From Candidatus Helarchaeota archaeon (GTDB taxonomy: Archaea; Asgardarchaeota; Lokiarchaeia; Helarchaeales; RDOG01), in the NCBI GenBank assembly GCA_029838215.1, contig JALGVI010000011.1, positions 26,705 through 90,704 on the forward strand: a DNA stretch of 64,000 bases, given 5' to 3'. Below are positions 15,516 to 31,980 of the stretch, in pieces. The stretch's first letter is position 1. Each line of letters starts with the position of its first letter. The translations under genes and the position numbers were made by a program. The notes beneath the pieces are model-generated. The model made no database searches. It saw only the letters and a list, made by a program, of their open reading frames with translations, and was not told where the DNA came from.

Positions 15516-15696
15516 GTGATATCAACCTTTTTTTTATTATTGATAATGAAGAATTTTCCGTCTTTAAATTTTTCTAACTTCAAAAACGACTAAAACTCAT
15601 TTTCAAGCAATTAAACAAATCTGTATTCATCCATTAGAAAATTTAATATATTCCAAATTGCTTTTTTTTTCATCATTGAAAGATTGGAGAGCACTC

Positions 15697-16614
15697 ATGG
15701 ATTTAAGACTCGAAATATTAAAATCATTTCTTAAAGTTGCCGAATTAGGAAGCTTTTCTGGTGCTGCCATACAATTAAAAAAATCACAAGGCGGAATCAG
15801 TCAACAAATCGCAAGCCTTGAAGAATATTTTGGAGCTGAGTTGTTCAAACGGACAATGAAAGGCGTGAAACTTACAGAGGAAGGAAAAGTTCTCGTAAAA
15901 CGAGCGAAAGAATTATTTGAACTTCTAGACTTGGCTCAAAAAGAAATTAATGAACTAAAAGATGAAAACCGAGGCAAGATTCTCATTGCAGCAAGTACCA
16001 TTCCTGGAGAGCACCTGCTACCCGTGATCATTTCCGCATTTAAGAGCCAAAATCCTCAAATTAATTTTGAGCTCGAATCATCGGATTCAGAGCTGAGCCT
16101 TAGAAAATTGGAAGAAAAACAAGTCGATTTTGCGGCAGTAGGAATAAACATGATGACATTACAAAAATTTGATAGTGTTGAATTGGCACGAGAACAACTG
16201 GTCGTCATCATGTCTCCCGAACACCCATTGGCTGAAAAAAAACAAATACACATTCAAGACCTCCTTCAATATCCTTTTGTAACCCGTGATTCAACATCTG
16301 GAACAAGAATTGAAACCGAAAAACTGTTGGAAAAAGCAGGGTTGGTACCATCACAACTTCAGATTCATCTAACATTAGCAACAACAGAATCCGTAATTAC
16401 AGCAGTCTCTGAAGGACTTGGAATCAGCATGATTTCCTCAATTGCCGCGTTTAAAGCCGCTGCCGCAAACCGCATTAAAGCAACTCCTCTCAAGATCCCT
16501 TCTCCACCTGTCCGGTCTCTATACCTCGTTAGATTAAAGCAAAAATCTCAAGATCGCCTCTTAGATCTCTTTTGGGAATTCGTCAAGCAATTCATGATGA
16601 AAAAAATGCAATGA
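15697..16614 (+). CDS. LysR-family transcriptional regulator, CysL-like / selenium-associated subgroup
   Basis: LysR HTH (FLKVAELGSFSGAA...SQQIASLEEYFGAELFKR), AASTIPGEHLLP, RDSTSGTR. ATG at 15697. Confidence 0.9.
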   Translation: MDLRLEILKSFLKVAELGSFSGAAIQLKKSQGGISQQIASLEEYFGAELFKRTMKGVKLTEEGKVLVKRAKELFELLDLAQKEINELKDENRGKILIAASTIPGEHLLPVIISAFKSQNPQINFELESSDSELSLRKLEEKQVDFAAVGINMMTLQKFDSVELAREQLVVIMSPEHPLAEKKQIHIQDLLQYPFVTRDSTSGTRIETEKLLEKAGLVPSQLQIHLTLATTESVITAVSEGLGISMISSIAAFKAAAANRIKATPLKIPSPPVRSLYLVRLKQKSQDRLLDLFWEFVKQFMMKKMQ

Positions 16615-16831
16615 TTCGTCTTTTTTTTCTATAAACTCTTTATATCCAACTTATCTCCTAAACAGGAACATCAATGACACTCCATTTTCCAAGCATTTCT
16701 CGAACCGAGATTTAGAAGATGAGAAATCCCCTAATAAAAATCTTGCATCAAAAAACCGGAATATAAATTTTAATAAGCAACAATTTAGATAGATATTCGT
16801 AGCCAAGCAATAAGGATTTGGATTGATTTGT

Positions 16832-17605
16832 ATGGTGAGAACTTGTCCATTTTGTAACCGAAACGTCATGGAAAAAGATAAATGGTGCCCTTGGTGCGGT
16901 AAAAAACTTTCAGATCAAGTAGAAACTACCGTAAACCCCATAAAAGCGCAGGAGCCAGCTGTGACAACACCCGAGCCCGCGCAGAGTGCTTCACCTACCA
17001 CTTCTCCAGTACCTACCATGACCGAATTGCCCATGCCTGAAAATCAAGCCATTGAACAATACTTACTTAGGGCAAGAATTGAAAAAATGAATGAAAAACT
17101 AAAAGAAGCAAAAGAAAAAATCAATCAATATTTGACAAAAATTGAAGCTCAAGGAGCAACCATTTCGGATGACGACATTCAGGAGTTGAAAGTTCTCGTT
17201 CAAAAAATAAAAACCAAACGAGACGAATTAGTCCGTAAGAAAATCGATCTTCCATTCGAAGAAAACCTCCTTCAAAAACGTCAAGAAATTGAAGGAAAAC
17301 TCCGGAAAGTCCAAAATACGTTCATGACACAAAAAATCTCAGAAGTTGCATTCAATAAACTGAAAGAAGAATATGAAAGCGAACTAAATCAGATTAAAGC
17401 TAAAATGACTCAACAGAACCACTTCGAACAAATACTTAAAACGAAATTGGAAAAAAGACAAAAAATACTCGAAGAAGAGCTAGAAGTCCTCAAGGCAAAA
17501 CTTGAAATCCAAGAACTTACGGAAGAATCTTACCAAGAACGCTTAAAAACAACCCAGAAAGAATTGGATGATATAAAACTGGTTTTATCTAAACTAATTG
17601 CATGA
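16832..17605 (+). CDS. Zinc-ribbon plus CdvA-like coiled-coil protein
   Basis: CPFC...CPWC, a Pro/Thr linker, then coiled coil with ISEVAFNKLKEEYE and LEVLKAKLEIQELTEESY. Confidence 0.7.
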   Translation: MVRTCPFCNRNVMEKDKWCPWCGKKLSDQVETTVNPIKAQEPAVTTPEPAQSASPTTSPVPTMTELPMPENQAIEQYLLRARIEKMNEKLKEAKEKINQYLTKIEAQGATISDDDIQELKVLVQKIKTKRDELVRKKIDLPFEENLLQKRQEIEGKLRKVQNTFMTQKISEVAFNKLKEEYESELNQIKAKMTQQNHFEQILKTKLEKRQKILEEELEVLKAKLEIQELTEESYQERLKTTQKELDDIKLVLSKLIA

Positions 17606-17688: not shown

Positions 17689-18276
17689 TTGAGCCGTGAG
17701 CCTAAGCGTTTCAGGGATGACCGATCGAGGCGGAAAACCCGCGACGAAGAACATCACTCAAGAGATAGGGATTACCAGCAAAAGAAAAATTACTCGCCTC
17801 AGAGCTCATATAGACGGAGACCACATGATTCACGACAAAAACGTTACCATGATAATAGATCTTCTTTTCGACGTCAGCCCTCCACGCGAACTCAACCCAA
17901 AATCACTCTTGAAGAATTCCTAAAAAAACAAAACGGTTATTGCGGACCCGGATGCCCTGAACATCTCTTTAAATGTCAAAAACGTGCTCTCGGCAGAAGA
18001 CGGCAGGATAAAAACGGAAACTGGAAGGTCGAATGTAATTTCATTGAAGGCGAATACTGCGAAGGACCAAACTGCCAATTTGCTTTTTGTGCTAAGCGGA
18101 AAATGCGCTCCGATGGAAAATGCAGTCTTTTAAAAGAAACATCAAACCCCCAAAAAAGCACTTGGGATGACGAACTGGATGATGATGTTGATCCAAGCAA
18201 CTCACTCAAGAGCTTCAGGTTTCAGGATAAAATTAAAAAGAAAATCCGCCACTATGATGACTTTGATGATTTTTAG
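17689..18276 (+). CDS. Hypothetical protein with Arg-rich disordered N-terminus and 8-Cys domain
   Basis: R/D/S/Q-rich first 70 aa; CGPGC..FKCQKRAL...C...C.GPNCQFAFC.KR....GKC. Confidence 0.75.
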   Translation: MSREPKRFRDDRSRRKTRDEEHHSRDRDYQQKKNYSPQSSYRRRPHDSRQKRYHDNRSSFRRQPSTRTQPKITLEEFLKKQNGYCGPGCPEHLFKCQKRALGRRRQDKNGNWKVECNFIEGEYCEGPNCQFAFCAKRKMRSDGKCSLLKETSNPQKSTWDDELDDDVDPSNSLKSFRFQDKIKKKIRHYDDFDDF

Positions 18277-22178: not shown

Positions 22179-22294
22179 GGCGAGCCGTTGCACAGGTGGT
22201 CCTGGGCACCGGACTTCAGAGTCTCTAAAAAAATACGGAGCAATCCGGTATACCTGACGAAGGTATGGGGTTCGATTCCCCCGGCTTGCCGCCA
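22179..22294 (+). tRNA. selC: tRNA-Sec (UCA), 9/4 fold, with a 23-nt intron at 37/38 (22220-22242)
   Basis: 9-bp acceptor GGCGAGCCG / CGGCTTGCC, G73 and encoded CCA; 7-bp D stem with TGGT loop (one A.G); anticodon CT-TCA-G; 6-bp variable stem; 4-bp T stem GGGG-TTCGATT-CCCC; BHB around the intron. Confidence 0.93.
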
Positions 22295-28447: not shown

Positions 28448-28644
28448 TGTCTAGGTTACTTTCGAACCCGGCACGCTCGGGTGTTTGGGGGCCGCACGCT
28501 GAACATCTCCTTTCGTTGATGCGTACACGCCGGCTCCATCAAACTCCTCTTTTAGGAGAACCCTCGTCTGCTGCAATCCGTTGCTGTCACCAGCCCCGGA
28601 CGACCCATGCCTCGCAGCAGAATGGACGGCTCGTTTCAGGTTTC

Positions 28645-28675
<31 letters not shown>

Positions 28676-28801
28676 GATTGCAGCGTGGCTGCCCGGCATT
28701 GCCCTATCGGACAACCGGTAGACTAGTGGCTACCGCACGCCGTTCCTCTCGTACTGAGCGTCCGTTACCCTCAGCCATCCAACACCCCCAGTAGATAGAA
28801 T

Positions 28802-28844
<43 letters not shown>

Positions 28845-28932
28845 TTAATGGGCGTACAGCCCCACCCTTGGCAGCTGCTTCACCGCCAGGATAGGAAGAG
28901 CCGACATCGAGGAAGCAAGCCGCGGGGTCGAT

Positions 28933-29028
28933 TTACTCGAACCCCCCATTTCAGCTCTTCTGAACGTAAGCACATCGCATGTGAGAGAAGACTCATGTTA
29001 AGTTTGAAAAGTGTCTGTGGGGAGCTCT
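28933..29028 (-). other. 96-nt BHB intron in 23S helix 89
   Basis: Removal restores GAGCUCACAUCGAC. Central helix GCUC/GAGU, bulges AC|A and AA|A, 9-bp intron stem GAGCUCCCC/GGGGGGUUC. Confidence 0.88.
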
Positions 29029-29574
29029 GTGAGCTCTTGCCCGCGACGACTCTGTTACCCCCGGGGTAATTTTTTTGTCGCCACCTACTCCCATGAATGG
29101 AGATTAGATGGATCGCTAGGCCACGCTTTCGCGTCGGGATTCATCATTGGGCAGAATCCCATCAGGCCAGCTTATGCCCTTGCACTCTACGAAGCGTTTC
29201 TGTCGCTTCTGAGCTGACCATTGGGCCTCTTTGATATCTTTTCAAAGAGGTGCCGCCCCAGCCAAACTGCCCACCTGAAGGTGTCCTGAAGCACATGGCT
29301 CCAGTCAGTGATACAACGTACCGAGGCCAGTATTCCACGGTTGCTGGTTCGTGACCCGAAAGCCACAACCCATGAGCTCCTGGCTATGCTATGCGCGACA
29401 CACCGCACCACAACATCAGGCTGCAGTAAAACTCCACGGGGTCTTCTCTTCCCACTGGGGGATCCCGGACTGTTCGCCGGGTAGTGGGTTCACCGGGTAG
29501 AAGGTAGGGACAGTGGGGACCACGTTGATCCGTTCATGCACGTCGGTACTTGTCCGACAAGGCATTTGGCTACC

Positions 29575-29825
29575 TTTATTAACATTGATTATAATTGATA
29601 AGCGGGATATCTATCAAATTTTTCATCTATTTTTGTTCTTAATGGCTTGGTAGTTCTGATATTAAATTTCTCGTTTTAAGTTTCTGAAATAAATTCTATA
29701 GAAGGATGTTTTCCTTCCACTAGACTCTTGAATTTTTTGTTTAATGATTTCTGTTGTAATTAATGTTTAATTATGACGTTTATTATCAGAGATAGTCCCA
29801 GAATCTTGACGCAGCAGAACACTTG
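29575..29825 (-). other. 251-nt intron at about E. coli 1927 of 23S, AT-rich with an eroded ORF
   Basis: Removal restores CUCUCUUAAGGUAGC. Junction is ambiguous by 1-2 nt and the BHB is imperfect. Confidence 0.85.
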
Positions 29826-31980
29826 TTAAGAGAGTTATAGTTACTCCCGGCGCTTAGCGGAGCTTACTCCGGTTGGACCCGGTTATGACTGACCGCCGCT
29901 GGCCAGGATTCACAAACTGTACACAGGCTTTCGCCCTTGAGTCACTGCGACCGGAGGTCCCAGGTATCAGCCCAAGACTGCCGGCACTCCTTATCCCGAA
30001 GTTACGGAGCTAATTTGCCGATTTCCCTTACCTCCTGTACACCCGACACGCCTGAGGCTTCTCACCTAGGAGCACCTGTGTTGGATCTTGGTACGGACAC
30101 GGAGGATCCTTCGCGATTTCCTTTTCATGGGCTCCAAGAATCAACCAAACCACCCTCTATTGGGTGGCCATTCATCTTTTCACCCGGTTCTCACCATTGC
30201 GGTACTCCCCGGGTTTATGGATTTAGACAAGGCGATGACCCTGCTTGGCCTATCTCAAAGCGTCAGAAATCGCGCCTACGTTACCGCAAGCGTACCTCCG
30301 TGGTACAGGAATATAAACCTGTTTCCCTTTCGGCTCTTACGTATTAAGAAGAGTCTTAGGACCGACTAACTCTCGGCTGACGACGCATCGCCGAGAAACC
30401 CTTGTCCTTTCGGCGGCATGGATTCTCACCATGCTATGCTGTTACTACCACCGGGATTTTCACTGCTGACCGGTCCACAGGAGATCACCCCCCTGCTTCG
30501 TCCCAATCAGCACGCCTTCCTACCAAATCACGGCTATTGCCGTGCTCCGAGGTATCGGTGGCTGGCTTGAGCCCCGTCCATTTTCGAGGCCCATGAACTC
30601 GATGGGTGAACTGTTACGTACTCTTTAAAGGATGGCTGTTTCTAAGCCTACCTTCCCATTGTCTTCGTCCACGAACGCCCTTCAGTTTGACACTTAGCCA
30701 GCACTTAGGGACCTTAACCCCGGTCTGGGTTGTTCCCCTCTCGGCAGCGGGGCTTACCCCCACTAACCCTTCTCCGGGCTTCTACGGTGCTAGCACGTTC
30801 GGAGTTTGTAAGACAAGAGAGGATGTCACTCCCCTTGCTTGCCAATCAGTGCTCTACCGCACTAGCTACCTCCACCCAGGCTACACTGAGATGTACTTCG
30901 GAAGGAACCAGCTATTTCCAGGCTAGATTGGCCTTTTGCCCCTATTCCCAGGTCATCAATGCGAATTGCACGTCAGCTAATGTTCAGGCCTCCACGGCAG
31001 TTTCCCGCCGCTTCACCTTGCCCAGGAATAGATCGCCTGGCTTCGGGTTTTATAACTTTGACTACGGCCCTTTCAGACCGAAGTTTCTCGGTTGGTCCTT
31101 CTCAAGGTTCTTGTGCTTCCACCTGCTCTAGGAGCTCAGGCTTACGCCAAGGTGTTGGCACCGTCGCCAAGACAAGTGCACCAACTTGCAAACTTTTCGG
31201 TTTCCCTGCGCTTCAGGGGTTGAACCCCTTGAGCTCGCCAAAATCATAAACTCCCCGGCCCGTGTTTCTAGACGGAATTAGTGACATTAGTCCTCTCCTC
31301 TCGTACTACCGGATTGCTCCGGGTTCCTTCGAGGAGAATCTGCCCTTTCATGCCACTAACGATCATGCCCAACTGGTTTCAGGCTCTTTGCACTCCTCTT
31401 CCGAGGTCCTTTTCAACTTTCGGTCACCCTACATAGTACGCTATCGGTCTGGGGGAGTATTTAGACTTGGAAGTTCATGGCTCCCATCTTCACGCGGGAT
31501 ATCCAACCCACGCTACTCTGGAATCTCAGCCCAGCGCCGTCCTCGTTACGTCTACGGGGCTATCACCCTCTACGGCTCATCTTTCCAGATGAATTTGACT
31601 TCCGAGGGGGGGCGGCGGCTGAGTCCAAAACACTACATCCCCGCGAGCTTTCACAGGCGGGTTCAGTTTGGTCTGTTCCCTGTTCGTTCGCCATTACTAA
31701 GGGAATCTCATCTTGATTTCTTTTCCTGCGGGTACTGAAATGCTTTAGTTCCCCGCGTTCCCGTTCCCTATAGGGAACGTTACGGTTTATTAGACCGCAA
31801 CACTACGTCGCATTCGGCAATCTCCGGATCTCGGACTGCGTGCGTCTCCCCGGAGCTTATCGCAGCTTGCCACGGCCTTCATCGGCTCCCCAGCCGAGTC
31901 ATCCACCAATTGGGGTCGGCGTTGACGGGTTCTAATCGTAATTGCCCTAGGTCGAGCTAAGGCTCGAAATATTTACCTCA

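Follow-up and report, generated by a model that had tools for sequence, protein, structure and literature searches.

The 64-kb window, as the whole stretch of DNA analysed here is called, contains a genuine 9/4-type tRNA-Sec gene of a Helarchaeales-type Asgard archaeon. The gene is very probably the single, functional tRNA-Sec gene of this organism, interrupted between nucleotides 37 and 38 by an intron that would be presented in a bulge-helix-bulge (BHB) motif and cut by the splicing endonuclease EndA, with the exons joined by RtcB, and that appears to be a recent, lineage-specific gain. The coordinates of the features are collected in Table 1.

Table 1. The interrupted tRNA-Sec gene, its predicted splicing motif and associated selenocysteine (Sec) genes. 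Coordinates are those of the window unless a contig (C) is named.
Feature	Coordinates	Strand	Remarks
EFsec / archaeal SelB (aSelB), Sec-specific elongation factor, 466 aa	19445..20845	+	TIGR00475 selB 283 bits vs cut-off 242; aSelB_III PF21440 1e-20
SepSecS, O-phosphoseryl-tRNA(Sec) selenium transferase, 439 aa	20842..22161	+	TIGR03531 498 bits vs cut-off 225
A/T-rich TATA-like box AAATAAATTATTAA	22148..22161	+	centred ~26 nt upstream of the tRNA 5' end; read from the sequence
tRNA-Sec gene, pre-tRNA 116 nt	22179..22294	+	including discriminator G73 (22291) and encoded CCA (22292-22294)
Exon 1	22179..22219	+	5' strands of the acceptor (9 nt) and anticodon stems, D arm of 7 bp closing a UGGU loop, anticodon-loop nt 32-37 (CUUCAG) including the entire UCA anticodon
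BHB central helix 5' strand, C32 U33 U34 C35	22214..22217	+	4/4 pairs with 22237-22240
5' splice-site bulge, A36-G37/A	22218..22220	+	predicted cut between 22219 and 22220, from BHB geometry
Intron, 23 nt, AGTCTCTAAAAAAATACGGAGCA	22220..22242	+	at position 37/38; inserted with respect to both the Rfam and the R1 model; absent from G001/L007 and L122
Intron outer helix h', G22221-C22236 and U22222-A22235	22221..22236	+	closes an A-rich 12-nt loop; marginal, only two contiguous pairs
BHB central helix 3' strand, GGAG, intronic	22237..22240	+	
3' splice-site bulge, C-A/A38	22241..22243	+	predicted cut between 22242 and 22243, from BHB geometry
Exon 2	22243..22291	+	nt 38, 3' strands of the anticodon and acceptor stems, variable arm (6 bp, 5-nt loop), T arm (4 bp), G73
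SelD	C55:1528-2385	-	selenoprotein candidate; one in-frame TGA in FHG-U-ACK, at the active-site Cys/Sec position
FlpD/VhuD-family gene, selenoprotein candidate	C110:16153-16521	-	two in-frame TGAs

The Rfam tRNA-Sec model (RF01852) matched the gene with 52.9 bits against a gathering score of 47 (E 7.9e-8); positions 22179-22290 were aligned to model positions 1-91 of 91, with a 25-nt insert in place of two loop positions after UUCA. A covariance model of the lineage, R1, gave 83.4 bits (E 1e-16). R1 was derived from an alignment (A3) of 12 intronless tRNA-Sec genes of related Asgard genomes, from which the tRNA-Secs of family f5 (G017 and G038) were excluded because they were poorly aligned. 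Standard pairs made up 99% of the cells of A3 and changes on both sides were present in 24 of its 32 pairs; none of the control alignments, shuffled or slid in register, came near the observed pairing. The first-pass annotation had described the gene as a tRNA-Sec with an intron at the canonical 37/38 position, and the matches to both models, relative to each of which the intron is an insert, bear this out.

The spliced 93-mer folded by minimum free energy (MFE) into an exact 9/4 cloverleaf with 31 of 32 pairs at -46.8 kcal/mol. In this structure the acceptor stem has 9 bp, one of them G.U, and the D stem has seven positions, one of them an A.G mismatch, with UGGU as its loop. The anticodon stem (6 bp) carries the loop CUUCAGA, the variable stem (6 bp) closes a loop of 5 nt and the T stem has 4 bp; G73 is followed by a CCA that the gene itself encodes. 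The A.G mismatch of the D stem was common to the intronless relative on metagenome contig L122. The anticodon (U34 C35 A36, 22216-22218) was located wholly in exon 1. Removal of the insert produced the arm ACCGGA-CUUCAGA-UCCGGU, which is letter for letter the anticodon arm of L122, and the same CUUCAGA loop with G37 was found in G001 (= L037, 'Candidatus Helarchaeota archaeon LW55_61'), an intronless member of the same family. The predicted splice junction, and with it the spliced loop with G37 that had been claimed, is corroborated by these intronless orthologues. Concerning the 3' end, G73-CCA was encoded in 77 of the 77 Asgard and Bathyarchaeia tRNA-Sec genes surveyed (alignment A4), the window's 22291-22294 included; according to a 2022 review (PMC9499178), archaeal genomes do not encode the CCA of tRNA-Sec.

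The suspicion that standard scanners may miss the gene was justified, as default ARAGORN found no tRNA in the 64-kb window and, with introns allowed, called a tRNA-Gly. This candidate, tRNA-Gly (tcc) i(38,23) at C165:48885-48994, required the removal of 22218-22240, i.e., a register shifted by two bases, in which one of the four central-helix pairs is formed and no BHB is obtained, and it was rejected. A tRNA-Gly(UCC) with a 23-nt intron starting within the anticodon is, despite the ARAGORN report, effectively already refuted, considering also that the body of the molecule is of the tRNA-Sec type (9-bp acceptor, 4-bp T stem, 7-bp D stem, long variable arm and G73) and that the gene adjoins SepSecS, as tRNA-Sec does in relatives. 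When applied to the whole genome, ARAGORN detected 18 tRNAs when introns were disallowed and 33 when they were permitted, 16 of the 33 being intron-called, including the mis-called tRNA-Sec. Since this set is far below a full tRNA complement, many tRNA genes of the organism probably contain non-canonical or multiple introns beyond ARAGORN's model.

The coordinates and letters of the intron were exactly those given in the first-pass annotation. The helix CUUC/GGAG and the bulges AG/A and CA/A proposed there were also recovered, with four of four pairs in register (C-G, U-A, U.G and C-G, thus one G.U). A 4-bp helix in exact register was obtained by chance for 1.3-1.6% of random 23-mers and the 4-bp helix combined with a 2-bp outer helix for 0.1-0.2% of them. 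According to Yoshihisa (2014, PMC4090602), the BHB of an archaeal pre-tRNA has a 3-nt bulge on either side of a 4-bp helix, in which anticodon positions one and two are paired with intron bases; the usual length of canonical archaeal 37/38 BHB introns in elongator tRNAs is, as that review quotes it from Marck and Grosjean (2003), 12-25 nt. The predicted intron resembles these in position, in the 4-bp helix using the first two anticodon bases, in the two 3-nt bulges, in length and in the presence of EndA and RtcB genes. It differs from them in its host, a tRNA-Sec with a 6-bp anticodon stem, and in the outer helix of only 2 bp, which may leave the 5' site in a loop, in a relaxed form similar to bulge-helix-loop (BHL).

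When the tRNA body was kept fixed, the pre-tRNA folded best at -48.2 kcal/mol, with the central helix formed (pair probability ~0.70). In the same fold h' was unformed and the remaining intron open, giving a bulge-helix-loop; the full cloverleaf with BHB was predicted at -46.2 kcal/mol. The unconstrained MFE of -49.3 kcal/mol corresponded to an alternative fold with the anticodon stem opened, 1.1 kcal/mol below the body-constrained fold and 3.1 kcal/mol below the cloverleaf with BHB, and unconstrained RNAfold returned the BHB neither for the pre-tRNA nor for the isolated arm. The unconstrained fold was not counted against splicing because the energy model penalises BHB bulges and the tRNA body is stabilised in vivo. 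As for the flanking helices of a strict hBHBh' motif, h is provided by the 6-bp anticodon stem, and h' consists of 2 bp that were unformed in the thermodynamic prediction. The description of the motif as a 'clean BHB' is therefore slightly generous, given the G.U in the central helix, the 2-bp h' and the folds without h'. As modelled, the motif lies at the boundary of strict BHB and bulge-helix-loop.

The same simple count was made for the other tRNAs of the genome with 37/38 introns (Arg-CCU, Arg-UCG, Trp-CCA, Val-GAC, Ser and Asp), and it gave a 4-bp helix with outer helices of 0-3 bp. From these equally short outer helices, the tRNA-Sec motif would be typical of the existing substrates of the resident enzyme. 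The search of the genome for a paralogous copy of the intron (blastn-short; up to 5 substitutions) resulted in A-rich chance matches only and, as no donor copy was found in the genome, there was no sign of intron copying between tRNA genes.

The genome encodes two EndA paralogues, at C168:14184-14753 and C1:87072-87749, both with PF01974/PF02778 endonuclease domains. The best PDB matches of one of the two were 3p1z_B, 3ajv_B, 2cv8_A and 2zyz_B, whose titles say only 'tRNA-splicing endonuclease' and which we take to be catalytic subunits of crenarchaeal endonucleases. The other was divergent, matched also the Nanoarchaeum chain NEQ261 and had Thr in place of the catalytic His of its counterpart, a residue presumed to be a member of the Tyr/His/Lys triad by reference to the M. 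jannaschii enzyme. Two EndA subunits would be consistent with the (alpha-beta)2 type of Asgard archaea. In these organisms, the (alpha-beta)2 enzyme has an L1 loop that leads to broad specificity (PMC5829648). An RtcB ligase (577 bits) and a PSTK-like gene (160.6 bits, under the NCBIfam cut-off of 290.5) were also encoded.

On this basis, the following course of events may be proposed. An A/T-rich promoter of its own, immediately behind the EFsec-SepSecS operon, would drive transcription of the tRNA-Sec, and the pre-tRNA-Sec would fold into the 9/4 cloverleaf. Loop nucleotides 32-35 would pair with the GGAG near the intron 3' end, placing the splice sites in 3-nt bulges around the 4-bp helix, and a two-subunit, (alpha-beta)2-type EndA would cut at both predicted sites. 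RtcB would then join the exons into the 93-nt tRNA with the loop CUUCAGA, G73 and encoded CCA, to be converted by SerRS, PSTK and SepSecS into Sec-tRNA(Sec), which EFsec would deliver to UGA codons. The splicing event, the quaternary type of the endonuclease and the promoter are steps which we infer from sequence. The chain leading from the intron through EndA, RtcB and tRNA-Sec to a Sec-containing SelD is complete on paper, its catalytic steps being deduced from the genes present, and the decoding of Sec, with EFsec, SepSecS, SelD and the VhuD-like protein, probably depends on tRNA splicing.

These genes also bear on the question of whether the tRNA-Sec was instead disabled, the 23-nt insertion being retained while the Sec trait decays in the lineage. 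The weak outer helix of the BHB and an MFE fold that is not a BHB would fit such decay, as would an Rfam score only 6 bits over the gathering score. Apart from the insert, however, 31 of 32 cloverleaf pairs were kept, and the BHB helix was in exact register, for which the probability by chance is about 1.5%. EFsec, SepSecS, the PSTK-like gene and RtcB were intact. Moreover, the in-frame TGAs were kept in SelD and in the VhuD-like gene, where they would be lethal stops without a working tRNA-Sec, and the assembly held no alternative tRNA-Sec copy. A decaying gene is hence very unlikely, and a functional gene with a spliced intron is preferred.

The window gene was the sole R1 match in the 3.6-Mb, 94%-complete genome. 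The only other RF01852 match in the genome was the tRNA-Ser(GCU) of ARAGORN. The genome is a metagenome-assembled genome (MAG) of 170 contigs with an estimated completeness of 94% and contamination of 6%, and for this reason a second, unassembled copy of tRNA-Sec or a local assembly error is possible. An insert arising as an assembly or binning artefact, or as a minor population variant, with the true gene of the organism intronless, would accord with this contaminated, 170-contig source and with the intronless genes of the nearest relatives, G001 and L122. Such an origin was nevertheless judged highly improbable, since a chimeric join is unlikely to place a 23-nt insert exactly at 37/38 with the GGAG in the correct register, the intron has neither a repeat nor a paralogue in the genome that could mislead the assembler, and the contig is coherently archaeal (archaeal 23S rRNA, EFsec-SepSecS).

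The local gene context was that of a Sec cluster. The EFsec and SepSecS genes overlap by 4 nt and the tRNA-Sec starts 17 nt past the SepSecS stop codon, a linkage to SepSecS that was found in most relatives. With the A/T-rich, TATA-like box upstream of it, the tRNA may have its own promoter, and a similar box, ATAAATAAATT, was located upstream of the intronless gene of L122; the box is a possible promoter of the tRNA-Sec itself. A 94-aa ORF overlapping the tRNA-Sec gave no family match, and the downstream gene, encoding a Nudix CoA pyrophosphatase, is convergent with the tRNA-Sec.

Other loci in the window should also be mentioned. A LysR-family regulator, a member of a bacterial-type family on an archaeal contig, is encoded beside the Sec cluster about 3 kb upstream of EFsec (15658-16614, + strand) and scored 248.8 bits against the cut-off of 250 for the NCBIfam equivalog 'selenium metabolism-associated LysR'. 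The two ORFs between this gene and EFsec (16823-17605 and 17689-18276) had no Pfam or NCBIfam match. An archaeal 23S rRNA match at 28465-31931 (- strand) was 3467 nt long relative to a 2987-position model, with about 480 nt of inserts.

The R1 model was further run on the window, on three relatives and on 80 SepSecS loci, the last taken from named species representatives of Asgard archaea and Bathyarchaeia. The loci were retrieved with an alignment of nine SepSecS sequences, a search with a single SepSecS having returned no relative. The sample is biased, as it consists of the best 80 of 177 SepSecS matches and covers tRNA-Sec within 2.5 kb of SepSecS. It yielded 77 genes, or 76 after the removal of one duplicate (L024 = L051). 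Among these 76 SepSecS-linked tRNA-Sec genes, 48 were uninterrupted and 28 contained one to three inserts, at four positions. The D loop was involved in most of the interrupted genes, together with the T loop (15), alone (3) or with the variable arm and T loop (1); the others had inserts in the T loop only (4), at 37/38 only (3) or at 37/38 and in the T loop (2). A T-loop insert was present in 22 of the 76 genes, the window gene not being among them. Inserts at 37/38 were detected in five genomes of three separate lineages, alone in the window genome, CSMAG_2237 and 2R3_4 and combined with a T-loop insert in Hel_238_bin105 and ABR11. All 12 genes of a Thorarchaeota-labelled clade were uninterrupted.

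As over a third of the surveyed genes carry introns, the window gene is not a rarity but one more member of a common, poorly documented class of interrupted Asgard tRNA-Sec genes. The first-pass remark that tRNA-Sec introns are rare is true of the literature, where a review names Lokiarchaeota as the only archaeal case (PMC9499178), and does not apply to Asgard genomes.

Interruption was reflected in the scores, with 68-78 bits from R1 for genes with two introns and 100-110 bits for most intronless ones. The Rfam gathering score was passed by the window gene, by G032 (37/38 insert) and by G028 (T-loop insert), whereas the D-loop-interrupted tRNA-Sec of G033 (L028 1172-1296) reached 37.6 bits, under the gathering score of 47. 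The genomes G007, G008, G029, G031 and G040 raise the same concern as G033; several relatives with a SepSecS-type Sec system had no Rfam match above the threshold. In the fetched flanks of seven SepSecS loci (L032, L035, L038, L039, L041, L048 and L062, several of them from Jordarchaeia), no R1 match was found; the explanation would be a tRNA-Sec located elsewhere in the genome, a flank of insufficient length or too many interruptions for the gene to be detected. One surveyed contig, LJUH01000039.1, is labelled 'Chlamydiae bacterium SM23_39' and carries an Asgard-type SepSecS with a two-intron tRNA-Sec (L053 2303-2459), near-identical to those in MAGs of Promethearchaeota; the contig is probably archaeal and was mis-binned.

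The first-pass annotation had named a catalogued intron of identical placement as an argument against its claim. The same 37/38 position was indeed found in four other public genomes, and no description of an archaeal tRNA-Sec intron at 37/38 was found in the literature searched. The four are the Asgard MAGs CSMAG_2237 and 2R3_4 (24 nt each) and Hel_238_bin105 and ABR11 (28 nt each, plus a T-loop intron), which agree with the window gene in position and geometry and differ from it in having unrelated intron sequences and belonging to different SepSecS clades. The geometry of CUUC/GRAG, 2 nt and N38 was also that of two unrelated tRNA-Sec 37/38 introns (L047/L051 and L069/L074), and the three 37/38 intron sequences had nothing in common beyond the GRAG and 2 nt required for the BHB. 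The linked SepSecS proteins were placed on a tree made by a quick maximum-likelihood method, with SH-aLRT as the only support; L024 (duplicate of L051) and three loci in which SepSecS was incomplete or missing (L023, L061 and L102) were left out. On it, the 37/38 genes fell into three separate clades with starred support, each beside intronless genes. Two changes were counted on this tree for the '37/38 only' state and one for '37/38 plus T loop'. Such well-separated clades with intronless neighbours, combined with unrelated intron sequences, point to independent events. All nearest relatives of the window gene (G001 and L122, and G003, G005 and G006 of the same order) were intronless and, because of this, a recent gain on the window's own branch is the simplest reading. 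The window intron is most likely a recent, lineage-specific gain, which agrees with what is reported for Asgard tRNA introns generally, i.e., mostly terminal, repeated gains.

For interrupted tRNA-Sec genes, the papers searched name Lokiarchaeota alone among archaea and Daphnia among eukaryotes (PMC4989117, PMC5330540, PMC9499178), apart from the supplementary listing given below. The T loop of the Lokiarchaeota gene holds an intron of 31 nt (Mariotti et al. 2016, PMC4989117; Santesmasses et al. 2017, PMC5330540). That gene resembles the window gene in its Asgard 9/4 structure, in the D stem of 7 bp, in G73, in having a single short intron removed by protein enzymes and in its linkage to the Sec machinery, with EFsec within ~6 kb in Lokiarchaeota and EFsec-SepSecS directly adjacent in the window. 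It differs in that the window gene's intron is 23 nt long and lies in the anticodon loop at 37/38. The tRNA-Sec genes of Daphnia pulex have introns of 25 nt and 16 nt at the canonical position (Santesmasses et al. 2017, PMC5330540), and share with the window gene both the point of interruption, one base past the anticodon on its 3' side, and the approximate intron length. Those genes are eukaryotic, present in two copies and processed by the Sen complex with its ruler mechanism, whereas the window gene is single-copy and would be BHB-dependent.

Closer to the window organism, a tRNA-Sec of Atabeyarchaeia (SeC/UCA, 175 nt) with three introns was listed by Valentin-Alvarado et al. (2024, PMC11291895, Supplementary Data 4). 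The genes of Atabeyarchaeia and Freyarchaeia (L040 and L034) are also of Asgard origin with BHB-type introns, and were found only with Secmarker and manual curation; their two or three introns are located in the D loop, variable arm and T loop, with none at 37/38. Sun et al. (2021) noted 'unusual insertions' in some Lokiarchaeia tRNA-Sec genes, which were not termed introns. Introns were unmentioned in later selenoproteome papers, and a 2026 census preprint covered tRNA-Sec only in its methods.

Because the sole tRNA-Sec would have to be spliced and SelD, the maker of the selenium donor, is itself a candidate selenoprotein, it could be imagined that the intron acts as an EndA/RtcB maturation checkpoint on all selenoprotein synthesis and that the repeated gains at 37/38 (at least three) reflect selection and not drift. 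This we regard as very unlikely. If it were true, selection would have acted for gating, or for shielding a single-copy gene from integrating elements.

For the window genome, the result is the correct placing of the only tRNA-Sec gene found. The outcome of the survey, in which interrupted tRNA-Sec genes proved common among Asgard and Bathyarchaeia genomes, with up to three introns per gene, is more useful than the single case and contradicts the review-level claim that Lokiarchaeota are the only archaeal example. As generic scanners fail on interrupted tRNA-Sec genes, the Sec trait may go under-counted in Asgard lineages wherever a survey depends on a tRNA-Sec call, and this matters for reconstructing the passage of the archaeal Sec system into the eukaryotic one.
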